DNA from: an uncultured delta proteobacterium
Lineage (GTDB): Bacteria > Desulfobacterota > Binatia > UBA9968
Length of the DNA stretch: 64,000 nucleotides
Assembly: GCA_963816145.1 (NCBI GenBank)
Contig: CAWFJP010000030.1
Location: 288,001 to 352,000, forward strand
Reading direction: 5' to 3'
The notes under the pieces: model-generated
The model's input: the letters and a program-made list of their open reading frames with translations, nothing else
What the model was told of the DNA's origin: nothing
Database searches by the model: none
Position numbers and translations under genes: made by a program
Part shown: positions 5,991 through 27,584 of the stretch, in pieces
Layout of the letters: each line of letters opens with the position of its first letter
How positions within the stretch are numbered: position 1 is the stretch's first letter

Positions 5991-6482
5991 ATGATCATCC
6001 GCGATGCCACGGAAAGCGATCTGCCGGAAATAATCGCCATCTACAACGCATCGGTTCCCGGGCGTACCGCCACCGCCGATACGCAACCGGTCACAGTTGA
6101 GAGTCGACGAGCCTGGTTTCATGAACATCATCCAACCACGCGCCCGCTTTGGGTCGCTACTGAAAATAACGCCGTCGCCGGCTGGCTCAGCTTCCAATCG
6201 TACTACGGGCGGCCTGCCTATCATGCCACTGCTGAGATGAGCATTTACGTCGCCGCGGATTTTCAGCGTAAGGGAATTGGCAACGCGCTCCTGGCCAAGG
6301 CGATCGAGCATGGGCCACGATTGGGATTGAAGACTCTCCTCGGCTTTATCTTCGGTCACAACGTCGCGAGCCTGCGGCTGTTCGAGACGCTCGGCTTTCA
6401 ACGTTGGGGCGTTTTGCCGCGCGTCGCCGAGATCGACGGCGTCGAGCGCGATCTAATCATTGTCGGCCGTCGAACAGCCTAG
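5991..6482 (+). CDS. GNAT N-acetyltransferase (phosphinothricin/methionine sulfoximine acetyltransferase-like)
   Basis: IYNASV..TATAD, RPAYHATAEMSIYV, QRKGIG acetyl-CoA loop, NVASLRLF. Confidence 0.9.
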   Translation: MIIRDATESDLPEIIAIYNASVPGRTATADTQPVTVESRRAWFHEHHPTTRPLWVATENNAVAGWLSFQSYYGRPAYHATAEMSIYVAADFQRKGIGNALLAKAIEHGPRLGLKTLLGFIFGHNVASLRLFETLGFQRWGVLPRVAEIDGVERDLIIVGRRTA

Positions 6483-7214: not shown

Positions 7215-7295
7215 GAACAAAGGCCAACTGTGGCGAGTTGGCCCCTTCGGCGCTTAAGTTTTGCCGCGGCGGTGTGTTATGCTGCCGCTCTGAAA

Positions 7296-7482
7296 ACCGG
7301 ATGGCCCTCGGCCTTAAGCCAAGGAGATTGAATTTGTCGACTGGAAGACGTCTCCTCCTTTCGTCATTCCGGCGCAGGCCGGAATCCAGGTTTTTTTGGC
7401 CTTGTAGCACAAGTGCCGGCATGACAAACCTTTTCTTCGCCTGAAGGCGCGGGATTTCAACCATCCCCGAAAGGGACATTAA
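7296..7482. mobile_element. non-autonomous palindromic element, family B copy 1
   Basis: CCCTCGGCCTTAAGCC...GTCATTCCGGCGCAGGCCGGAATCC...GCCTGAAGGCGCGGGATTTCAACCATCCCCGAAAGGGACATTAA. Homologous to 50154..50384 and 52376..52602. Confidence 0.75.
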
Positions 7483-8759: not shown

Positions 8760-9932
8760 ATGAACCAACAGCTCGCCAATTTTTTAGTCAAGGGCGGCCG
8801 CCTCATCGACCCCGAGGGGAGCCATGATGGCTCGTTAGACATTCGCGTTCGCGACGGCAAGATTGACGCTATCGGCGCGAATCTCGCTGCTGGCGGTGCC
8901 GTTGTTATCGACGCCAAGGATTGCGTCGTCACGCCCGGATTGATCGACGTCCACCTCCACTTGATGAAAGGCCTTGGCGCCTTCGGTGTCGACCCGGATA
9001 TTTTCGGCGTTGGCTCCGGCGTGACGACTGTCGTCGACGCCGGCAGCGCCGGCCACACGCTGCTCAATGTATTTCGTAACTACGTCACCGACAACGCCAA
9101 GACCCGCGTGCTCAATTACATCAATCTGTCGACCCTTGGCGGCGTCAGCGGCCCCGGCTATAGCATCCTCGCCGACCCGCGTTTGATCGATGAAGCGAAG
9201 ATCGAGCAGGCGGTCGAAGCCAACCGCGACATCATTGTCGGCATCAAGATCATCGCCACCGGCGGCGCGCTGGGAGTTCAAGGATTAAAACCGCTCGAGC
9301 GCGCCCGCAAGCTGGGCGATTCGCTCAAAATCCCTTTGCTAATTCATATCGGCGAGAGCTGGACCAAAGGCACCGAACCGATCGCCATCGGCGACGTGCT
9401 CAAGTACCTCGTCCCCGGCGACATCATCACGCATATGTTCACCGTGCACCCGGGCGGTTTGCTCGACGCCAACGGCAAACTGTGGCCACAAGTACGCGAT
9501 GCCAAGGCAACCGGCGTACTCATGGACGTGGGCCATGGGCTGCACAATTTGAACTTCGACGTGGCGCGCAAAGTGCTCGACCAGGGGCTTCAGCCCGACG
9601 GCGTCTCCACCGACGGCCACCGCGGCAACCGCTCCGGCCCGGTGTACGATCTACCGACGACCATGGCTAAACTTATGGCGCTGGGGTTCTCTCTGAATCA
9701 GGTCGTCGAGATGGCAACGGCGAACGCCGCGAAACTGCTCGGACGAGCCGGCCAACTCGGCACCCTGCGCGCTGGCGATTCAGCGGAGATCTCGGTTTTG
9801 AAAATTGAAGACCGCGAGTGGCAGGCACTCGACTCGCAGAAGGGAATGATCCCCGCCAAGCAGACCATTACACCAGTCTATGCCATCCGCGGCGATATGA
9901 TCTACGAACCACTCCCGGCAAACAGACCATGA
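8760..9932 (+). CDS. amidohydrolase/deacetylase family metallohydrolase (dihydroorotase-like)
   Basis: PGLIDVHLH, GVTTVVDAGSAG, IVGIK, IHIG, THMF, DVGHG, STD. Confidence 0.88.
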   Translation: MNQQLANFLVKGGRLIDPEGSHDGSLDIRVRDGKIDAIGANLAAGGAVVIDAKDCVVTPGLIDVHLHLMKGLGAFGVDPDIFGVGSGVTTVVDAGSAGHTLLNVFRNYVTDNAKTRVLNYINLSTLGGVSGPGYSILADPRLIDEAKIEQAVEANRDIIVGIKIIATGGALGVQGLKPLERARKLGDSLKIPLLIHIGESWTKGTEPIAIGDVLKYLVPGDIITHMFTVHPGGLLDANGKLWPQVRDAKATGVLMDVGHGLHNLNFDVARKVLDQGLQPDGVSTDGHRGNRSGPVYDLPTTMAKLMALGFSLNQVVEMATANAAKLLGRAGQLGTLRAGDSAEISVLKIEDREWQALDSQKGMIPAKQTITPVYAIRGDMIYEPLPANRP

Positions 9933-10042: not shown

Positions 10043-11500
10043 CTATCTTTTTCTCCGCGTCGTCGTGCTGCCGAAGATCGATCCCAACACACCGCGCATG
10101 ATCTCTCGTCCAACTTGACTGCCGATCGCTCGCGCCGCGCTCGTTCCCAACGCGCCGAGCAGTTTCCCGGCCTCTCCTTGCCATCCGCTACCGCTTTGCC
10201 CCGGTGCTTGCCCGGCTTCAGCCTGCGGCGTACGCGTTTTGAGCATCTCGTAAGCCGAATCGCGATCGACGATCTTTTCGTAGTGACCGTACAGTGTCGA
10301 CTGTTTGACGACCTGCTCGCGTTCGCCGGCGGCCAGCGGCGGCAGTTGGCTTTGCGGCGGATAGATCAGCGCGCGCTCAACCGGCGTCGGTTGCCCTTTG
10401 TCGTTAAGAAACGATACAAGCGCCTCGCCGACGCCAAGCTCGGTGATCACCGATTCCACATCGACGTTCTTGTTCTGCCGAAAAGTCGTCGCGGCCGCCT
10501 TGACAGCTTTTTGATCGCGCGGCGTGAAGGCGCGCAGCGCGTGCTGCACGCGATTGCCGAGTTGGCCGAGCACAACCTCGGGCACGTCGAGTGGATTTTG
10601 CGTTACGAAATAGACGCCGATGCCCTTGGAACGGATCAGGCGGATTACTTGCTCGATCTTCTCCAGCAAGACATTGGGGGCATCGTTAAACAGCAGATGC
10701 GCCTCATCGAAGAAAAACGCCAATTTGGGCTTCTCCGGATCCCCCACCTCCGGCAAGCGCTCGAATAACTCGGATAACAGCCAGAGCAAGAAAGTCGCGT
10801 ACAGCTTGGGGGCATTGATGAGCTTATCGGCGGTGAGAATGTTGATGATTCCGCGCCCTTGGCTATCGGTCTGCATCATGTCGTCCAGATCGAGGGCCGG
10901 CTCGCCGAAGAACTTGTCGCCGCCCTGCTCTTCGAGCGCCAGCAAGCCGCGCTGGATCGCGCCGACGCTCGCCGCCGAGACATTGCCGTACTGGGTTTTA
11001 AACTGCGCCGCATTGTCACCGACATGCTGCAGCATGGCGCGCAGGTCTTTCAAATCGAGCAGCAGCATGCCGTTGTCGTCGGCGATCTTGAAGACCATCG
11101 CCAGCACGCCGCTCTGGGTCTCGTTTAAATTGAGCAGGCGCGCCATCAGCAGCGGCCCCATGTCGGAAATCGTCGTCCGCACCGGATGGCCCTGTTCGCC
11201 GAAAACATCCCAAAATGCCACCGTATAGGCGGCAAATTGAAATCCGTCGATGGCGAGCTTGTCGAGCCGTTCACTAATTTTTGGGTTCGCCGCGCCGGCC
11301 CGGGCGAGCCCCGACAAATCGCCCTTCACATCGGCCATGAATACCGGCACGCCGATCCGGCTGAACCCTTCTGCGATCACGCGGAGCGTCACCGTCTTGC
11401 CGGTGCCGGTGGCGCCGGCGATCAGCCCATGGCGGTTCGCCATTCGCGGCAGAAGCACCAGATCGTTGTCCCCCTTGGCAATCGTAAGAACATCCGACAT
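10043..11500 (-). CDS. DUF853/HerA-like P-loop ATPase (YjgR family)
   Basis: [14 protein letters not shown] Walker [20 protein letters not shown] Walker [28 protein letters not shown]. Confidence 0.92.
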
Positions 11501-11724: not shown

Positions 11725-11949
11725 GTGAAAAGAATTTTGAGCGTATTTATTACTTCGATGTTTTTGGCCTCTGCCGCATTTGCCGCCGATGCTACGAAGG
11801 ACGAGAAGAAGACCGAACCAGCCAAGGCGAAAGCCAGCGACACTAAGGGTGAGGCCAAATCCACTGAGAAGAAGGCCGATGGCAAGGCGAAAGCCAGCGG
11901 CGCCAAAGCCGACGCTAAGAGCGACGAGAAAAAAGCCGCCACTAAGTAA
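11725..11949 (+). CDS. small secreted Lys/Ala-rich low-complexity protein
   Basis: AGGGGG RBS, GTG start, signal peptide ending AFA, K/A/D/E-rich tail, followed by a terminator. Confidence 0.8.
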   Translation: MKRILSVFITSMFLASAAFAADATKDEKKTEPAKAKASDTKGEAKSTEKKADGKAKASGAKADAKSDEKKAATK

Positions 11950-11970
11950 GCATTTTTCTGGGTTGTCTCA

Positions 11971-18840: not shown

Positions 18841-19650
18841 ATGAACCAAGAACTGACCGCCAGCATCCCCTATACCGTGGACACGGGTGAAAAACTCGTG
18901 AACGAAACCTTCGGCCCGAATAACATACGGCGACGCAAGACGGGCAGCCACGAACTCATGACCATGGCCGTGCGCAATGGCCGGTTGCTTGGCGGCGAGA
19001 TTTCACTGGAGCAAAACGGCTTCGTCTTGGTTGACCACAAAACCAAGGTCGCCGACTTCTTCGATACCCGGCAACTTGAGTCGGTGTACTACCGGGAAGT
19101 CGAGCAATTGATCAAACGAGAGTCAGGCGCATCCCGGGTGGTGATTTTCGATCATACGCTACGCTCCGGCGACGAAGCCGAGCGCGAAAAGAAGCTGATC
19201 CGCGAACCGGTCATGTCGGCGCACAACGATTATACCGAATGGTCGGGACCGAACCGAGTGCGCGAGTTTCTGCCGGACGAAGCGGAAGACTTGCTGACCC
19301 GCCGCTTCGCGATCGTTCAAGTCTGGCGCGCGATCAATCAACCGATCCAAACCAATCCCCTCGCGCTGGCCGACGCCAAGAGTGTGGCGATGGAAGATCT
19401 GGTCGTCGCCGAGCGCCGCTACCCACACCGGGTCGGCCAAACCTATCGATTGAAATACAACCCCAATCATCGCTGGTATTATTTTCCCGAGATGCGCCGC
19501 GACGAAGCGCTGGTGTTTAAAGTCTACGATTCCGAAATGGACGGCCGCGCGCGCTTCACGCCGCACACATCCTTCGACGATCCCAACACTCCGGCCGGGG
19601 CTCCGGCACGGCAAAGCATCGAAGTGCGCGCTTTCGCCTTTTATAATTGA
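18841..19650 (+). CDS. CmcJ/NvfI family oxidoreductase
   Basis: FDHTLR, AHNDYT (HxD), QVWRAI, PLALAD, HRWYYFPEM, FKVYDS, TPHTSF, RQSIEVR. Confidence 0.88.
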   Translation: MNQELTASIPYTVDTGEKLVNETFGPNNIRRRKTGSHELMTMAVRNGRLLGGEISLEQNGFVLVDHKTKVADFFDTRQLESVYYREVEQLIKRESGASRVVIFDHTLRSGDEAEREKKLIREPVMSAHNDYTEWSGPNRVREFLPDEAEDLLTRRFAIVQVWRAINQPIQTNPLALADAKSVAMEDLVVAERRYPHRVGQTYRLKYNPNHRWYYFPEMRRDEALVFKVYDSEMDGRARFTPHTSFDDPNTPAGAPARQSIEVRAFAFYN

Positions 19651-19714
19651 ACATTCCACAGCGAGAATTCACGAGAATGCGATTCAAGTCGACTCAAAGT
19701 TGACTTGCAAATTT

Positions 19715-19794
19715 CTGTCATTCCGGCGTCGGCCGGAATCCAGGTTTGTTCCGCTGAACTCTAAGCTGGATACCGGCTTTCGCCGGTATGACGG
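19715..19794. repeat. GTCA-type REP doublet
   Basis: CTGTCATTCCGGCGTCGGCCGGAATCCAG...CTGGATACCGGCTTTCGCCGGTATGACGG. Confidence 0.8.
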
Positions 19795-19901
19795 AACAGC
19801 TCTTCATCAGAGGCGATGCTCAATTCGGGTGACGGTGCGGCCTGATTTCAATCTAAACCGAAATGGCGTGCGGAGTTTGGAAAAAATTTCTCGCCGAACC
19901 A

Positions 19902-19929
19902 TTCACAAGTTTTTCTGCTTTGCTATAAT
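19902..19929 (+). promoter_or_regulatory. sigma70-type promoter with extended -10
   Basis: TTCACA-16 bp-TATAAT, with TG one base upstream of the -10 hexamer. Confidence 0.55.
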
Positions 19930-20058
19930 CATCTGCGAACATCAACCTTCCGAACTGTGAGCGTTTGATCCTGTTTTGCATTCAACTATCGCGTCACGAG
20001 CTTACGGCGACGCTTGGCGCAGCCCGATAATCGCCAAGTTCCGGCGCGCAATCCATTG

Positions 20059-20110
20059 ATGGAGAAACCGAATCAAAATGTCTAAACCTATGCCGAAACC
20101 CGAGGTGGCT
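20059..20110 (+). repeat. diverged duplicate of the top6B translation-start region
   Basis: ATGGAGAAACCGAATCAAAATGTCTAAACCTATGCCGAAACCCGAG versus ATGGAGAGCCGTGAATTGAGATGTCTAAAGCTATGCTAAAAACCGAA at 24448. 22/27 nt identical counting from the ATG. Confidence 0.7.
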
Positions 20111-20180
20111 CGTAACAGGTTATTGCGTTGCCGCCTGTAGGGCGAGAATCTATGATTGCAAGGCTCCCTGCTAAAGTTCC

Positions 20181-21833
20181 ATGAGAATAGCCCAGTCGGT
20201 TCAACTAACCAAAGACGAAATACGGATACTGACGAAATGGGCACGAGGTCGTCGGACCCCAACTCGGCAGATGCAACGAGCGAAGATCGTTCTATTGGCC
20301 GCCGAGGGACATCAGAATAATACGATCGCGAACATGCTGGGCATTAACCGAGTGCGGGTGGCGCGCTGGCGCCAGCGGTTCGCAAATCATCGGTTAGCAG
20401 GAATTGAAAAAGATGCTCCACGATCAGGCACCAAGCGTCGCTTTGACCAGAATTTGGGGCAGCATGATTCGGCGACTCTGGAGCAGCATCTCCACACAAA
20501 ACGATTGTATCGCGATTTATCCAGCAAAGCCGATGTTTCCGACAGCTCCCCCCACACCATCCATGTAATTGACCCCTTACCACCTTCGATAGCACTGTCA
20601 TCCCAGCAACGGGAGGCCCTTGATGCGATCGTTGAAGAGCAACCGAGTCTTCCAGCCTCAGAGTGGCCTGCACGCGCAATTTTAATGTGGAGCAACGGAG
20701 TCACACAATCAACTACGGCTCGGGATCTCGGTATTAGCGAGGAGACCATCAAACTTCTACGTCATCGCTGGTTGTCATCAATGGACCGTATTGATGCAGC
20801 AGAGAAGAGGTTGACCAAGGAATTGACCAAGTTCTTGTCACTCATTTGTCAGACTCTAAGCGAGGAAACACCTGCCGAAACGCCACTGGATGCTCCTGCG
20901 GATATCGCCAAAACAAGAACCGCCAACCGAGAGAAGCCAACTACGAGTATTGAATTGCGACCGGCGACTAACGCACTAATCGAGATCCTTCATCACAAGC
21001 CAAACGTCTACGGAATTAACAGAAGCAATTGGAACCAACGAAGCCTCGCGCAAGCATTTGAAATACTATATGGCCAGAGGCCATCAAAAAGTACGGTATC
21101 CCGGCTATTGAAGCAAGCTGGTCTCAGCTGGAAGAAGTCGAGAAAAGTTTTGACAAGTCCAGATCCCAATTACCGCGAAAAGGTCGAGTTGTTATTAACA
21201 ACACTCCAATCTCTGAAAGCTGACGAGGATTTGTTCTTTATAGATGAACTAGGACCACTTCAGGTCAAAAGGTACGGAGGTAGATGCTACACTCCGAGGG
21301 GAAGCACGCCCACCCATCCGCAGAATCAGCGTACGAAAGGGTCTATCACCTTATACGGGGCGTTGAGTGCTACCACCAACCAAGTAACTTGGTTCTATAG
21401 GAATACGAAAGACTCAGCGGGAATGATCGACTTAGTCGAGATAGTTTACAATCAGCATCACGACAAAGCGAGAATCTATCTGACCTGGGATGCTGCCTCT
21501 TGGCACGGATCGAATGAGTTGGTGGAGTGGGCTGACAACTTCAATTCTTGGAACAACGCAAACAGCACCGGCCCAACTATCGAGTTCGTTCCGCTCCCGG
21601 CGAGCGCACAGTTCCTGGATGTCATTGAGGCAGTTTTCAGTGCTATGAAAAAGGCAGTGGTCCACAATTCGGACTATCAGTCGGAGGAAGAAATGAAGAC
21701 TGCCATATCCGTGCACTTTTGTGAACGAAACGAGTTCTTTAAACACAACCCCAAACGCGCCGGCAAGAAAATATGGCAAATAGACTTCTTCGAAGACCAA
21801 AACTACATACGGTCTGGGAACTATAAGGAATGA
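20181..21833 (+). mobile_element. IS630 family transposase (550 aa, duplicated N-terminal HTH module)
   Basis: RAKIVLLAAEG...RWRQRF...DAPRSG HTH, second similar module, SPDPNYREK linker, DDE triad FIDE / TWDAASWH / FLDVIE. No terminal inverted repeats found by eye. Confidence 0.9.
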
Positions 21834-21839
21834 AAAGGC

Positions 21840-24143
21840 ATGAGCCAGTTTTTGGTCGATACAGCATTTATCATCGAGCGGACATACCAGACGTTCTTTG
21901 GGACTCCGCTTCTGACAGCACAGGGAAGCGACCTTACTTTCACCTTCGCCTTTGCAAGAGATTTTCTAAGGCTGCGATGCGAGTTGAGTATTAAGGCGGG
22001 AGTTCTGGTTATAGGAAGGGAATCTCACTCACTCACCACCCATCAGAACATTGAGAGTGTTATTATTTTTCTTCAGCAACTGAAGATTCCTTACATCCAC
22101 GATCCGGCGAATCCCGGTTTAAAAATCATCGCCTCTATCAGTTCCCAATTCACGCATATCGTTTCGGGGGACAAGCGATGTCTACAACTGTGCAGCGACG
22201 ACCTTACCGTCGTCCTCGTTGGAGGTGCTAGCCGCTACCAATACGACTGGATGTCCGCGGATAAGGTCGGAACGAAGATGGGCATCGCTCCGAAAGATAT
22301 ACCCACCTACCTAGCGTTAACGGAAGCATCGAACGCGCAAGCAATAACCAGTAGACAAGCGGTCCGGCTCATCGAGCTGTATGGCGACTTGGATTCTATT
22401 TACGAGACCCTATCAAAGGTCGCGTCAGGCCAAATCCGAAAGACGCTGGTAAAAAACGAGACTCGAGCCCGGGATTACTATTCGGAGAGTAAAGCTAACC
22501 GAGCCAAGGAGTCATGCTCCTGCAATGTTCAAACCTTTTCTTTGAGCGACTTGGACACTGACAGAAATCGGCAACTTTTGAGAACTCACGGTTTTCACTC
22601 ACTTTTGCCACTATTGGCAAATCCTACGGATGCCCGGCTGGATTTGAATGAGATTACACCCAGACCAGACGCCTATCACGCCGTGGTTGACGTAAAGGGG
22701 ATCCTAGAACTCGAATCTTTGCTTGTGTCATCAAAGCAATGTTCAATAGACACAGAATCCGATGACAAGGATCCTAGGGAGGCACATTTACTTGGAGTTG
22801 CCTTCTCGGTAAAGGGCGGAGAAGCTTATTTCGTCCCGCTGATCGAGGAGGACCTCAAGGGATTGACCAAAGATGATGTGCTGAAGTTTCTAAAGCGGGT
22901 ATGCGATAGCGACATAGGTTTCATTGGACATAATATAAAGTACGATCACTTACTCCTCCGGCGAAACGGCATAAGGATTAAGTCGATTCACTTTGACACG
23001 ATGCTGGCCGCCTATGACTGTCATGGTGACTGGGACTTTTTCAATCTTCGTGACTTAGCTCAGAGATTCCTGCACGAGAAAATCAAATCCTACTCGGATT
23101 TGGTCGATGAAGGCAAAACCTTTCTAGACTTGCCCTTAAAAGAGTTGGTTAACCACGCTTGCCAGGACGCTGACGTGACCATGCGACTGTATCCCATTTT
23201 CTTGGCGGAGTTGAACGATCGAAATATAATTGAACAGTATTACGAACATACCATGCGTCAGATGATGCATCTAGCTGAGCTAGAATTCCAAGGGATTGCA
23301 GCAGATTTGGGGCAAATCGATGCGATCAGGCGATCTCTTGGTAAAAAGGCTTCTGACTTGAAGGACGATATCTGTAGAAAAGTGGGGATAGCCTTTGACC
23401 TGGACTCGGAGAAGGATCTTTCGGGAGTATTTAAGGAGGCTATAGTTTTGAGGGGCTATCTCGCGCCAAGAAAGATCACGATGGCAATATTAGAGCAGAT
23501 GGCCATTAGCGATCCGATTATGCGTTTGGTCATTCAGTATAAAAGACTCCGTCGTCGTATTTCGGGGCTGGAATCGATCTCCGCTTCTGTAACTGACGGA
23601 AAGATCTATCCGCTCTTTAGTCAAATTAAATCTCGTGCTGGTCTTCTGACCACGGTCAAACCAAGTTTGTTCGAGAACGATACATTGCCAGAACTCAAGT
23701 CTTGCTTCGATAGCGGTGTAAGGGATTATTTCAGGGATAGACAGCGAGCATTGGACACGTTATCGCAAGTGACTCATGATACTGCCCTAAGCGAACGCCA
23801 GACGTGTAAGTCTAACGCCGACGTTTTCACGACGGATCAAGTTGGGATGCAGAACCTTGACCACGAAGAATGCTTGCTTTCTCTCGCAGTGGGCCATTCC
23901 GATTCACAGCTGAGTAAAATGTTTCTCATGGATCGACCGAAGGTTGACATGATGCGGCATGATTTCACCAAGAGATATTCGACTATGTTTCGGTGGCTGG
24001 ACAATTATCGCCGGAAAGCCCAGGCAAACGGCTATTCCGCGATTAACGGCAAGCGAAAATACATTGATGGTCTCAAGAGTTCAGATATTTCTAGGAGAGA
24101 ACGAGCAACGGAACATGTGGTGAGGTGGTTGATACGTTATTAA
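21840..24143 (+). CDS. DNA polymerase I-like protein with degenerate 5'-nuclease and polymerase domains and conserved 3'-5' exonuclease motifs
   Basis: Colinear with PolA: LVD, SGDKR, LIELYGDLDSIY, IDTE (ExoI), GHNIKYD (ExoII), FDTMLAAY, ACQDADVT (ExoIII), DGKIYP, GKRKYI. Ends before polymerase motif C. Confidence 0.85.
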   Translation: MSQFLVDTAFIIERTYQTFFGTPLLTAQGSDLTFTFAFARDFLRLRCELSIKAGVLVIGRESHSLTTHQNIESVIIFLQQLKIPYIHDPANPGLKIIASISSQFTHIVSGDKRCLQLCSDDLTVVLVGGASRYQYDWMSADKVGTKMGIAPKDIPTYLALTEASNAQAITSRQAVRLIELYGDLDSIYETLSKVASGQIRKTLVKNETRARDYYSESKANRAKESCSCNVQTFSLSDLDTDRNRQLLRTHGFHSLLPLLANPTDARLDLNEITPRPDAYHAVVDVKGILELESLLVSSKQCSIDTESDDKDPREAHLLGVAFSVKGGEAYFVPLIEEDLKGLTKDDVLKFLKRVCDSDIGFIGHNIKYDHLLLRRNGIRIKSIHFDTMLAAYDCHGDWDFFNLRDLAQRFLHEKIKSYSDLVDEGKTFLDLPLKELVNHACQDADVTMRLYPIFLAELNDRNIIEQYYEHTMRQMMHLAELEFQGIAADLGQIDAIRRSLGKKASDLKDDICRKVGIAFDLDSEKDLSGVFKEAIVLRGYLAPRKITMAILEQMAISDPIMRLVIQYKRLRRRISGLESISASVTDGKIYPLFSQIKSRAGLLTTVKPSLFENDTLPELKSCFDSGVRDYFRDRQRALDTLSQVTHDTALSERQTCKSNADVFTTDQVGMQNLDHEECLLSLAVGHSDSQLSKMFLMDRPKVDMMRHDFTKRYSTMFRWLDNYRRKAQANGYSAINGKRKYIDGLKSSDISRRERATEHVVRWLIRY

Positions 24144-24204
24144 GCGCCAGTATGTGGACCTATCCACCAGCCAGTTTTGAGATCTAACCTCAATTTCTGA
24201 ACCA

Positions 24205-24235
24205 GGATTTGGGTAGCGTCCTAAATCCCAATTTT
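24205..24235 (+). terminator. possible terminator hairpin after the polA-like gene
   Basis: GGATTTGGG-TAGCGT-CCTAAATCC followed by CAATTTT. Confidence 0.35.
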
Positions 24236-24467
24236 GGCCTGGGAACGTTTGACACCGGTTTAGCTTGACCCCAAGTTAATTCATTTCTCGCATCGAAGGA
24301 TTAACAAACCCATTCGCTCTGATATATTAGAGATTAACAATCGGAATCGCTCGTTTGTCAGCACTGAGTCAATCATTCGTTGGGGGGTACTTAACTGTGA
24401 TTTATTCAGCGCCGACCCCGCCGATTTGGTACCACACATTCTATGCTATGGAGAGCCGTGAATTGAG

Positions 24468-26503
24468 ATGTCTAAAGCTATGCTAAAAACCGAAGCGGTA
24501 GCCACGCCGGCGCCGCCCAGCGAACCGCGAAAGATCGTCACCGCCGCCGAGATGGGCGCGCGCCAGAGAGAAATTTCCGTATCGGAATTTTTTACCAAGA
24601 ATCGCCACCTGTTGGGCTTCGACAGTCCGCGCAAGGCGCTGCTTACTTGCATCAAAGAAGCGGTCGATAACGCACTGGACGCTTGTGAAGAAGCCGGCAT
24701 CTTGCCCGAAGTCATCGTCAAGCTCGAAGTGGTGCCCAATGGCGGGATTACGGCGGCGCCGAGCCAAGCAACGCGCTTTCGCGTCACCGTGATCGATTAC
24801 GGTCCCGGCATCGTGCGCCAGCAGATTCCGCCGATTTTCGCCAAGCTGCTTTACGGCTCGAAGTTCCATCGTTTGCGCATGAGCCGCGGCCAGCAAGGCA
24901 TCGGCATCTCCGCCGCCGGCATGTACGCCCAGCTCACCACCGGCAAGCCGGTGCAGATCATTTCCCGCACCAGCGCCAGAGCGCCGGCGCACTATTTCGA
25001 AGTCCAGATCGACACCAAGAAAAACGAGCCGCGCATTTTCGAGAGTAAGAAAATCGACTGGGAAAACCACCGCGGCACACAGGTCAGTTTAGAAATCGAA
25101 GGGCGTTATCAAAAGGGCCGCGCCTCGGTGGATGAATATTTAGAACAAACGGCCATCGCCAATCCGCATGTCAAGCTCGTCTACCATACGCCTGAAGGCG
25201 AGATAAAGCAGTATCCGCGCACCATCGAAGAGCTGCCGCCGCAACCGCGCGAGATCAAGCCTCATCCCTACGGCATCGAGTTCGGTATGATGCTGAAGAT
25301 GTTGCACGACACCAAAAGCCATTCTCTGGTGGGTTTTCTGTCCAGCGAGTTTAGCCGGGTGTCATCCAGTCTGGCTCAAGAGATTTGTAAAACCGCCAAA
25401 CTCTCGCCCAACGCCCGGCCGCGCGATCTCCATGGCGCCGCCGCTGAAACCTTTTACAAAGCCATGCAGTCGACCAAGATCATGGCGCCACCGAGCAGCT
25501 GCATATCGCCCATCGGCGAACGGGCGATATCTGCACGGCCTGTACAAACAGATCAAAGGCGAATTTTACACCGCTGTGACCAGGCCGCCGGCGGTCTATC
25601 GCGGCAATCCGTTTGTCATCGAGGCCGGCCTCGCGTTCGGAAAAAGTCCGGAGCAGACGGTAAAAGTCAAAGAACCAAAGCATCCCGCTCGCCGAAGGCG
25701 AAGACAAAGACGACGACAACGAATTGGCGAGCGTGATCCGCTACGCCAATCGCGTGCCGCTGCTCTACCAGCAGTCGGCTTGCGCGACGTTTAAATCGGT
25801 CCTCGACACCACCTGGCGCAATTACGGCGTGGCGCAGTCGCGCGGCGCCCTGCCCGCCGGGCCGATGGTGATCTTCGTGCACATGGCGTCGGTCTGGGTG
25901 CCGTTCACCAGCGAGTCCAAGGAAGCCATCGCCGACTACGACGAGATTCGCAAAGAAATCAAACTCGCTCTCCAAGAGTGCGGCCGGCGGCTGGGAGTCT
26001 TCTTGCGGCGGCGCGAGCGCGCCAAGGGGGAATTTCGCCGGCGCAATATCTTCGCGCTTTACATCGAGGAAGTCGTCGATGCCTGCGCACGCTTGAAAGG
26101 CGGCAAGCTCGCCAAGGAAAAGCTCAAAGAACAGTTGCAAAAGATCGCCAGCAAACGCACCGGCGGCGAGAAAACCGACGAGATCCTGGGCCACGATGGC
26201 GGCGGGCCTGAAGGCCTGCCTCATTCGATCATCGTCACCGCCGACGGCACCGAAGGCGATGCTCCTAGCCTGCCAAGCTCGGATGAGAGCGCGGCGATGG
26301 CGCCTGCCGCAAGCGAGACCGAGCCGGAGCTGCCCATACTCGTCGACGATGATCCGGCGCCAGCAGCCAGAAACAAAAACGTCCGTGTAAAAGCAGCTAA
26401 TGCCGATCAAGCCAAAGATGGCGCGAAACAGATGACGCTAGCCTTGGACAGAAGGGCCAAACCTACAGGAAAGAAAGATGGCGGCAAAAAAAGCAAAAAA
26501 TAA
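24468..26503 (+). CDS. top6B: DNA topoisomerase VI subunit B (two +1 frameshifts, near 25531 and 25681)
   Basis: ISVSEFFTKNRHLLGF, KEAVDNALDA, DYGPG, LLYGSKF, SRGQQGIG (GHKL ATPase). Continues in the next frames as YRGNPFVIEAG, then RYANRVPLLYQQSAC and FTSESKEAIA. Confidence 0.92.
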
Positions 26504-27584
26504 CGGCGTCGTCGAGAAAAAGCTCATCAGCATCGCCGACACGGTGATCACTGCGGCGCAGCGCAGCCAGGACCCAACGCTGAATATTCCGGTGCGTAGC
26601 CTGGCCAACGTCAACTTCAACCCCAAGCGCGGCATTATCGAGATGGGCCGGCGCAAGCAGGAGCGCACCTTCTTCAACGTCGGCATGGCCAAAAAATTCA
26701 TGCAGACGGTGCTAGTGGCCGACGCCTTGGCCGAGCTGCAGCGCGCCAACTTGACCACCTCGCTGCGCGAAATTTACTACCGCACCAAACACACCATCAA
26801 AAATTCCCACGAGAACACCTTTGATGGCCAGAACGAGTCCGATCCGCTCATCGAAGATCTCGAAGTCACCCTCGAAGCGCTCCGCGAAGAACTGCATGTC
26901 AGCGCGGAAAACCGCGGCACCGTAGTCGGGCCGTTGACCATCGTCGACGATGGTGACCGCGTCGACTGCACCAAACTCGGCAAAGGCGGCTATTCGGTGC
27001 CCTCCATCGTCGAGCCGGAATATATTCAGATCAGCAAATGCACCGCCGACTTCATCCTGCTGGTGGAAAAAGGCACCCAATGGAACCGGTTATCGGAGGA
27101 TAAATTCTGGCGCAGGTATAATTGCGTCCTGATCACCGGCAACGGCCAACCGCCCCGAGGCGTGCGCCGGTTGGTGCGCCGGCTGCACGAGGATTACAAA
27201 CTGCCGGTCTACGTTTTGGTCGACAACGACCCCTGGGGCTACTACATATACTCCGTCATCAAGCAGGGGTCGATCAATCTCGCCTTTGAAAGCGAGCGCA
27301 TGGCGATCCCCAAGGCAAAATTCATCGGTTTCTCCAGCGCCGACCCCGAACGCTACGGCCTGCCGCGCAACGTCGGCATCAAGTTGAACGACAAAGACAT
27401 CAACCGCGCCAAAGAGCTGATGAAGTACAAGTGGTTTCAAAAAAAAGAGTGGCAGAACGAAATCAAAGGCATGCTTACCAGCGGCCTGAAATTCGAGCTC
27501 GACGCGCTCGCCAACAAAGATTTTCAGTATCTGACCAAGACCTACTTGCCAAGAAAACTGAAGGATAAGGATTGGCTTGATTAG
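26478..27584 (+). CDS. top6A: DNA topoisomerase VI subunit A
   Basis: LREIYY (catalytic Tyr), LLVEK, GNGQP, DNDPWG TOPRIM motif, FELDAL. Overlaps the top6B end by 26 nt. Confidence 0.95.
   Translation: MAAKKAKNNGVVEKKLISIADTVITAAQRSQDPTLNIPVRSLANVNFNPKRGIIEMGRRKQERTFFNVGMAKKFMQTVLVADALAELQRANLTTSLREIYYRTKHTIKNSHENTFDGQNESDPLIEDLEVTLEALREELHVSAENRGTVVGPLTIVDDGDRVDCTKLGKGGYSVPSIVEPEYIQISKCTADFILLVEKGTQWNRLSEDKFWRRYNCVLITGNGQPPRGVRRLVRRLHEDYKLPVYVLVDNDPWGYYIYSVIKQGSINLAFESERMAIPKAKFIGFSSADPERYGLPRNVGIKLNDKDINRAKELMKYKWFQKKEWQNEIKGMLTSGLKFELDALANKDFQYLTKTYLPRKLKDKDWLD

Follow-up and report, generated by a model that had tools for sequence, protein, structure and literature searches.

The stretch analysed here, called the window below, comprises 64,000 nucleotides of an uncultured delta proteobacterium (GTDB lineage Desulfobacterota; Binatia; UBA9968; assembly GCA_963816145.1, contig CAWFJP010000030.1, positions 288,001 to 352,000). 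It carries a mobile element of 4390 bp (20110..24499, forward strand), which holds only two open reading frames (ORFs): ORF1 (20181..21833, 550 aa), encoding a DDE transposase of an IS630 clade, and ORF2 (21840..24143, 767 aa), encoding a protein that resembles DNA polymerase I (PolA). ORF1 is preceded by 71 bp of element DNA, and ORF2 is followed by 356 bp. Both ORFs are unbroken and lie on the forward strand with a gap of 6 bp, and neither matches the tyrosine or serine recombinase families. The GC content is 0.46-0.50 over 20750-24500, compared to 0.57-0.63 in the flanks. ORF coordinates and GC profile thus agree with the initial annotation of the sequence, which had described two intact, co-oriented ORFs, 6 bp apart and AT-rich relative to their surroundings. 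An Rfam scan of 19400-24700 gave no match.

The limits of the element are defined by sites that lack it. Contigs assembled from three of four public sequencing runs (X1, X4, and X10; soil, wetland or sediment runs from three studies) join position 20109 directly to 24500, skipping exactly 4390 bp. At this joint, 0 letters fit both sides, and the skipped part starts with TC and ends with GT. The same three runs also hold pieces of the element, and the fourth run (X2) yielded a contig spanning the right junction and no empty joint. Right of the joint, the contigs of X1 and X4 match the host sequence of the occupied form without a single deviating letter. The element is present or absent in natural populations, i.e., polymorphic; only the existence of both forms is stated, because contig depths are not shares of cells. 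Empty sites are also found in four relatives of the genus (G002, G019, G004, and G021), in which the left flank up to ~20104-20109 adjoins the right flank from ~24435-24467; in G002, the flanks overlap by ~50 bp. Together, the empty-site contigs and the adjacent flanks of the relatives define the element as 20110-24499, in line with its low GC content. To the closest element, at locus L026, the DNA is alike only from 20153 to 24233 (83% identity).

No target-site duplication, including TA, is present at the resolved joint 20109/24500, and no terminal inverted repeats join 20110 and 24499 (best inverted flank score 21; shuffled sequences reach up to 25). When the window and 14 other loci of the same family were scanned for inverted repeats, nothing rose above the shuffled background, save a 15/16 candidate in L114 and a weak candidate in L025, which lies outside the conserved block. 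An empty site for the L025 element was sought in 40 further genomes of the family to which genome G049 belongs, which returned only short repeat-like matches. The limits of the element in the window, and its duplication-free insertion into a gene start that is restored, go beyond what the initial annotation saw.

This gene start is the 5′ end of the topoisomerase VI B gene (top6B), which the element occupies. On the left, the native ribosome-binding site and the first 11 top6B codons (termed R, 20056..20109, forward strand) are cut off from the gene; they are contiguous with the uninterrupted sites of relatives. On the right, the element ends with a target mimic (R′, 24446..24499, forward strand), consisting of a ribosome-binding site, an ATG at 24468 and 11 codons in frame with the host top6B body. 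R and R′ form an imperfect direct repeat of ~54 nt with ~77% identity (alignment score 34, shuffled maximum 25). The protein starts with MSKPMPKPEVA-ATPA in the empty form and with MSKAMLKTEAV-ATPA, in frame, in the occupied form, and the ORF 24468..25736 begins inside R′. The element-borne R′ restores the gene that the insertion has split. What remains of the native start is a 20-codon ORF (20078..20140, forward strand), in which the first top6B codons are fused to the left end of the element and then run into a stop. A promoter-like site upstream of the native top6B start (19902..19929, forward strand; 11/12 consensus plus TG extension, pattern only), in a region that alignment to relatives identifies as host DNA, now faces the element, and a second one (20128..20156, forward strand; 9/12 in a consensus scan) lies just 5′ of the transposase gene. 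A third promoter-like site, which faces top6B (24301-24328, forward strand; 10/12 consensus plus TG extension, pattern only), is located in the non-coding right arm of the element (24144..24445, forward strand), of which 24144-24233 is conserved with L026. Direct repeats of ~45 nt are also present at both element ends in L113 and L118, which belong to a second clade (copies in direct orientation at L113:5672-5716, 10134-10180, and 11914-11960, and at L118:1541-1586 and 6004-6050). The third L113 copy, 1.7 kb downstream, is possibly an unoccupied target.

As a separate observation, top6B in the window (24468-26503) is split into ORFs of 422 aa and 259 aa, which overlap near 25724-25736. Most relatives have a single top6B frame of ~660-730 aa, but the gene is also broken in G003, G004, G017, and G045. 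Assembly errors or genuine frameshifts may account for these breaks. Downstream lies the topoisomerase VI A gene (26478-27584).

The resemblance of R′ to the top6B start of a related lineage could also mean that the insert arrived by recombination from a relative carrying it at the same gene, and that it is no longer a working mobile element. Terminal inverted repeats and a target-site duplication were not found, and the element is present in a single copy, which would fit such an origin as well. However, the left joint and the end of the similarity between R and R′ coincide to the base. This base-exact joint, together with the identical host sequence on the right, is more readily explained by a clean insertion than by a homologous crossover combined with an illegitimate join. 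Moreover, the DDE triad of the transposase is kept, both genes are under purifying selection, and the family is patchily distributed across phyla. Arrival by recombination is accordingly regarded as quite improbable.

The product of ORF2 combines the architecture of DNA polymerase I with an extensive loss of its active sites. It matches the Pfam families DNA_pol_A_exo1 (PF01612) with 58 bits and DNA_pol_A with 48 bits, the latter covering profile positions 5-294 of 381 only, while matches to the 5′-nuclease families are below threshold. It also falls far under the PolA equivalog cut-offs (NF004397, 215.6 vs. 720; TIGR00593, 153.6 vs. 600). A structural model (AlphaFold2; predicted local distance difference test score, pLDDT, 84.7; predicted template modelling score, pTM, 0.60) matches full-length Pol1 of M. 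smegmatis, Taq polymerase, and the Klenow fragment in Foldseek. Three domains can be distinguished, all on the forward strand: a degenerate 5′-nuclease domain, similar to flap endonucleases (FEN) and PIN domains (aa 1-265, 21840..22634), a 3′-5′ exonuclease domain (aa 266-465, 22635..23234), and a remnant of thumb, palm and fingers (aa 466-767, 23235..24143).

The initial annotation had described this protein as a polymerase I that keeps only its proofreading exonuclease, and most of the individual losses and retentions that it listed hold up. Alignment to Klenow confirms that ExoI DTE, ExoII NIKYD and the ExoIII Asp are retained, so that the DEDD residues D304, E306, D369, and D445 are intact; the ExoIII Tyr of Klenow is replaced by His (H439). 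The R, K, and Y of motif B are not retained, and the protein stops ~90 residues short of the Klenow C-terminus, so that motif C is absent, consistent with the Pfam match ending at position 294 of 381. The claimed loss of motif A is correct insofar as the column is not conserved in the family, but a D does align with the motif A Asp in this particular copy (RDYF). The 5′-nuclease sites were checked against the stand-alone FEN of the same genome and the PolA of a relative: the second carboxylate, the helical arch, EADD, and the GDxxDN helix-three-turn-helix motif (GDxSDN in the initial annotation) are lost, whereas the first Asp, D7, is kept and invariant in the alignment. Half of GDKD is kept in ORF2 (GDKR), but not across the family. 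Judged by these alignments, the DEDD 3′-5′ exonuclease site is the sole intact catalytic site of the PolA-like protein.

A protein search with ORF2 returned 307 matches, of which the best 120 were examined; these are mostly 760-775 aa long, and the majority align over the full query length, with identities down to 39%. In an alignment of 22 sequences, D304, E306, and D369 are invariant, H439 and D445 are at least 90% conserved, and a C-terminus reading RWLIRY is shared. A profile search of 1.84 billion representatives found full-length members of 759-779 aa at 577-1271 bits, and the first PolA of ~900 aa at 320 bits; in the Atlas, a 771-aa cluster comprises 327 members. Ratios of non-synonymous to synonymous substitution rates (dN/dS), determined pairwise by domain for six pairs (Nei-Gojobori), are 0.25-0.36 in the 5′-nuclease-like domain, 0.12-0.22 in the exonuclease domain, where they are lowest, and 0.23-0.37 in the polymerase-like domain. 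All three domains, including the catalytically dead ones, are under purifying selection. That the exonuclease carboxylates are most conserved and that dN/dS is lowest in their domain argues that the activity itself is used.

The selective loss of active sites in an unbroken ORF had been taken by the initial annotation as a sign of repurposing rather than decay. The ~770-aa family, its fixed C-terminus and the dN/dS of 0.12-0.37 substantiate this. Close homologues with a complete polymerase domain, which would have pointed to a recent truncation, were not seen, the nearest ~900-aa PolAs scoring at most 320 bits, and none of the domains has a dN/dS near 1 (each 0.12-0.37). The alternative, a decaying polA pseudogene that lies beside an unrelated insertion sequence by chance, could draw on the fact that the host assembly holds no other polA. 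It is refuted by the intact 767-aa ORF, by a family with a conserved C-terminus down to 39% identity, by dN/dS well below 1, and by the location of the gene in a 4390-bp insert that is missing from the empty-site forms. Moreover, ORF2 is only 21-25% identical to the PolA of the host's genus, and searches of 30 other genomes of the genus did not detect its family. The probability left for this explanation is negligible.

A separate canonical polA in the host had been suggested as a check by the initial annotation, and here the expectation failed: the host assembly (G000; 7.8 Mb, 99.47% complete) yielded no polymerase domain of a canonical DNA polymerase I. Its only sequences related to polymerase I are ORF2 itself and, with the positions C15:96588-97448 and C29:454433-454933, a stand-alone FEN-like 5′-nuclease of ~300 aa and an RNase D-like exonuclease domain. 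Among the 30 other genus genomes (tallies that include G005), 21 contain a PolA of ~900 aa and nine do not, some of the latter being 93-98% complete. The flanks of polA in the relative G018 map to different contigs of G000, and synteny is not conserved. The absence of polA from the host assembly may reflect a real loss or an assembly gap. Besides its PolA, G018 has a second, weak match to the family A polymerase domain (G018:C15:14742-15374; 81.7 bits, 585-aa open frame).

ORF1 scores 175.4 bits against the IS630 family transposase model NF033545 (cut-off 100), and also matches Pfam DDE_3 and several helix-turn-helix (HTH) families. Homologues in other loci reach 138-189 bits against NF033545. 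The DDE triad is kept (D355 in 33/33 copies, D437 in 32/33 with one gap, E483 in 33/33), as are the neighbouring motifs. Conservation is distributed unevenly: the last ~290 residues (aa 263-550; catalytic core plus a C-terminal tail specific to the family) show 50-75% conservation per column, compared to 8-24% in the first ~250 residues, the variable HTH region (aa 1-262). Likewise, the core has dN/dS values of 0.06-0.20 and the N-terminus values of 0.15-0.50, and the length of the protein ranges from 420 to 730 aa across the family. At least 18 of 120 listed transposase matches agree in the size of their longest contig with a listed PolA-like match, which is a soft pointer only.

The two genes belong together well beyond the window. 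Homologous loci were collected from five species-representative genomes, labelled Deltaproteobacteria (two), Verrucomicrobiae, Candidatus Acidoferrales and Bacteroidetes, and from metagenomes (28 loci), giving 33 family loci; a locus was considered assessable if the start of the PolA-like gene and at least 300 bp upstream were present (tblastn). In all 26 assessable loci, a homologue of ORF1 from one IS630 clade ends 8-23 bp upstream of the PolA-like gene on the same strand. Four loci (L116, L119, L121, and L127) are cut by contig ends and were not assessable. All-against-all clustering of the neighbourhood ORFs showed that only these two families recur. Protein trees built from 16 loci, a comparison that the initial annotation had proposed, have 8 of 13 splits in common, and every clade of the transposase tree with a support of at least 92 is also present in the PolA-like tree. 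The one well-supported conflict concerns L103, which groups with L106 in the PolA-like tree (98) and with the window in the transposase tree (73). Across phyla, the two genes are inherited together as one unit.

A physical interaction of the two proteins is supported, though not shown, by structure prediction, which had likewise been proposed. When the full-length PolA-like protein was co-folded with residues 330-550 of the transposase, the interface score (ipSAE, interaction prediction score from aligned errors) was 0.76-0.77 in three runs, compared to 0.00 for the best of three controls. It thereby passes a mark that 58 of the 80 solved complexes and 2 of the 110 mismatched pairs used for calibration attain; these counts apply only roughly because the authors' own alignments were used. 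At least 76% of contacts agree between the runs, and the pLDDT of the partner is at least 75. The predicted contacts lie on the dead 5′-nuclease domain (residues 17-25, 36, 40, 130-132, and 251-257) and on the C-terminal remnant (687-690 and 746-754) of the PolA-like protein, and at residues 403-427 of the transposase. Taken on its own, the interface on the N-terminal domain is conserved to a degree that ~5% of random residue samples reach.

The constancy of the pair bears on the possibility that the PolA-like gene is mere cargo, i.e., a passenger exonuclease with a function in anti-phage defence or DNA repair, for example, and without a role in transposition. A weak PADLOC match to a CRISPR-associated DEDDh model (E 0.0018), an AbiEi-like ORF downstream of the module in L023 (E 0.00056, far below its cut-off) and the single copy per genome could be read in this way. 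However, no convincing match to a defence system was obtained, since PADLOC returned 0 matches for the transposase and the DEDDh model only for the PolA-like protein. Viral contigs searched contained no family member (best match 33% identity over short stretches), nor did the plasmids searched, in which all matches were below 24% identity and represented canonical polA. Cargo genes usually vary between related transposons, whereas here the same gene is found at a spacing of 8-23 bp in 26/26 loci and has diverged along with the transposase. Furthermore, the co-fold stands out from its controls, and the dead domains are under selection, too. A role as cargo is hence considered unlikely.

We favour, by a modest degree, the interpretation that 20110-24499 is a recently mobile, site-specific two-gene element, in which the PolA-like protein is an obligate partner or subunit of the transposase, exapted from DNA polymerase I. 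Both genes move as one piece, and the insertion is precise and occurs without target-site duplication. Linkage, family, dN/dS and co-fold support the core of the initial annotation, which had proposed that an IS630-type integrase and an exonuclease derived from PolA form a repurposed two-gene module; its expectation that relatives of the PolA-like protein would be tied to one IS630 clade is borne out in 26/26 assessable loci. In the mechanism that we envisage, the variable N-terminal HTH region of the transposase would recognize a target similar to the right end of the element itself. The transposase core would dock on the dead 5′-nuclease domain and the C-terminal remnant of the PolA-like protein, which might serve as a subunit of the transpososome that binds DNA junctions and trims 3′ ends. 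Duplication of a TA target and footprints are typical of IS630/Tc1-mariner elements; junction binding and trimming could allow the element to join and leave DNA cleanly, without either. A circular intermediate that is cut at the junction between R′ and the left end would give the observed product; no such intermediate was seen among the assembled contigs.

Alternatively, the PolA-like protein could act as a target selector, analogous to TnsE of Tn7, and steer the transposase to primer-template junctions, flaps or gaps, the exonuclease being incidental. The whole DNA-binding architecture of polymerase I is retained and under selection, and the PolA-like protein is predicted to bind the transposase core, both of which would suit such a role. 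However, the one resolved insertion is marked by a sequence like the element's own end and by no obvious structural feature, and an incidental exonuclease is at odds with the invariance of D304, E306, and D369 and with the lowest dN/dS in the exonuclease domain. We therefore assign this option only a small probability.

Several observations weigh against an obligate partnership within a site-specific element. Each of the six host genomes checked, the one studied here included, contains a single copy of the PolA-like family, consistent with low transposition activity. The linkage was counted from the PolA-like side, starting from the 33 PolA-like loci. In three of the 33 loci (L123, L129, and L172), N-terminally truncated PolA-like remnants occur with no family transposase upstream; the remnant in L123 sits behind an IS4-type DDE ORF. 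Of 15 loci searched for flanking direct repeats, only the window, L113, and L118 have any above the shuffled background, so the gene-restoring design may not be general. The predicted interface is not clearly set apart by conservation, neither in the transposase (0.675 for interface residues, 0.718 for the rest) nor in the PolA-like protein (0.644 vs. 0.603, with 18% of random residue samples as high). Exonuclease activity and complex formation are predictions only, and the interpretation leaves the duplication-free insertion by a DDE enzyme unexplained.

IS630 elements consist of one gene in ~1.1-1.7 kb and have terminal inverted repeats and a TA duplication. The transposase described here resembles them in scoring above the IS630 model cut-off and in its DDE triad, but the element has two genes in 4.39 kb, no detectable terminal inverted repeats, no duplication and a single copy per genome, and the transposase is extended by a variable N-terminal region and by an additional, conserved tail at its C-terminus. 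The element thus departs from the IS630 description in three respects (terminal inverted repeats, TA duplication and single gene), and its second protein falls outside PolA membership. With E. coli Pol I/Klenow, Taq polymerase, and M. smegmatis Pol1, the PolA-like protein shares the order and fold of three domains and the 3′-5′ exonuclease site; in contrast to these enzymes, it lacks the polymerase catalytic residues, the last ~90 residues, the 5′-nuclease metal ligands and the arch. Integrative islands that target tRNA genes restore the gene they split, usually at its 3′ end, and use tyrosine or serine recombinases. Like them, the element is inserted precisely and brings its own copy of the gene end that it displaces, but in the window, a DDE transposase is the sole recombinase candidate, and it is the 5′ end that is restored, with a promoter-like site. 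In Cas1-Cas2 systems with DEDDh, an analogy drawn by the initial annotation, an integrase works with a DnaQ-like 3′-5′ exonuclease that trims DNA ends. The weak DEDDh match mentioned above and the teaming of an integrase with an exonuclease recall this arrangement, yet the integrase fold is unrelated, and the exonuclease is embedded in a whole polymerase I scaffold.

A dead polymerase fold that is kept as partner of another enzyme is described for ImuB, which acts with ImuA/DnaE2, in the part of the survey consulted (PMC12926913). Unlike the PolA-like protein, ImuB belongs to family Y, its partner is another polymerase, and it is not located on a mobile element. For the DDE-type IS1272, duplication-free insertion is reported at targets that resemble its own ends, termed “IR-replacing” (PMC5678879). 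IS1272 differs in belonging to another IS family, with a single gene, many copies and no polymerase-derived partner. Term searches in the main texts of two surveys of PolA diversity (PMC10201439; PMC12926913) found mention of neither transposase-linked nor polymerase-dead PolA. The remark of the initial annotation that it knew of no described IS630-PolA system agrees with these searches: the literature searched held no description of such a pairing or of a polymerase-dead PolA, although supplements could hold such a cluster.

The element is best classed as a transposon with an accessory subunit, and there is a real chance that its mechanism is new. A further-reaching proposal, which we put forward tentatively and consider doubtful, is that of an undescribed class of mobile elements: a Tc1/IS630 DDE transposase and a polymerase-dead polymerase I would together perform sequence-specific, scar-free insertion and excision, with the target set by the HTH region, an element end that mimics the target, and a polymerase I scaffold whose live proofreading nuclease makes the joints seamless. 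Under the favoured interpretation, the PolA-like protein would be the first case found of a family A polymerase serving as a non-polymerase subunit of a transposition machine, and it adds to the few known dead-polymerase scaffolds. The element also presents an IS630/Tc1-mariner-type DDE transposon that acts like a site-specific integrative element, without duplication, with the gene restored and with both occupied and empty forms. The hypervariable N-terminus on a constant core points to a possibly modular target choice, and transposases with long, specific targets and clean joints are of interest for the development of DNA insertion tools.

The organization of the module varies between the other loci, which are spread patchily across phyla. 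Tandem upstream copies of the transposase are found in L023 (three in a row), L105, L109, and L128. In five loci, a second, convergent transposase lies downstream on the reverse strand (L025:10328-11908, L112:5429-6943, L114:7130-8806, L121:1617-3269, and L122:10329-11945; tblastn and tree); these inverted copies group in a separate clade (support 99) and are themselves under purifying selection (dN/dS 0.20-0.37). The convergent copy is whole in L025 and L114, two loci in which the upstream transposase is broken. The 15/16 inverted repeat of L114 (L114:3027-3042 and 8872-8887) brackets the resulting three-gene unit. Just past its right arm (~8940-8975), the sequence looks like the 3′ part of a tRNA; no tRNA gene was called there, nor in any of 17 loci scanned. 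A 17-nt motif from L114 was considered as a shared right end and rejected: its matches are dispersed over L103, L114, and L118, some of them far away from the module, and it is barely enriched (9 matches in 0.52 Mb, compared to 13 in 1.2 Mb of unrelated loci). In L026, the closest PolA-like relative (L026:6629-9002, 76% identity) is read in two overlapping frames near 7239-7312, possibly due to a frameshift or a sequencing error. The tandem array of L023 (L023:2890-7989) consists of three diverged paralogues of the IS630 clade (572, 558, and 527 aa), which precede one PolA-like gene.

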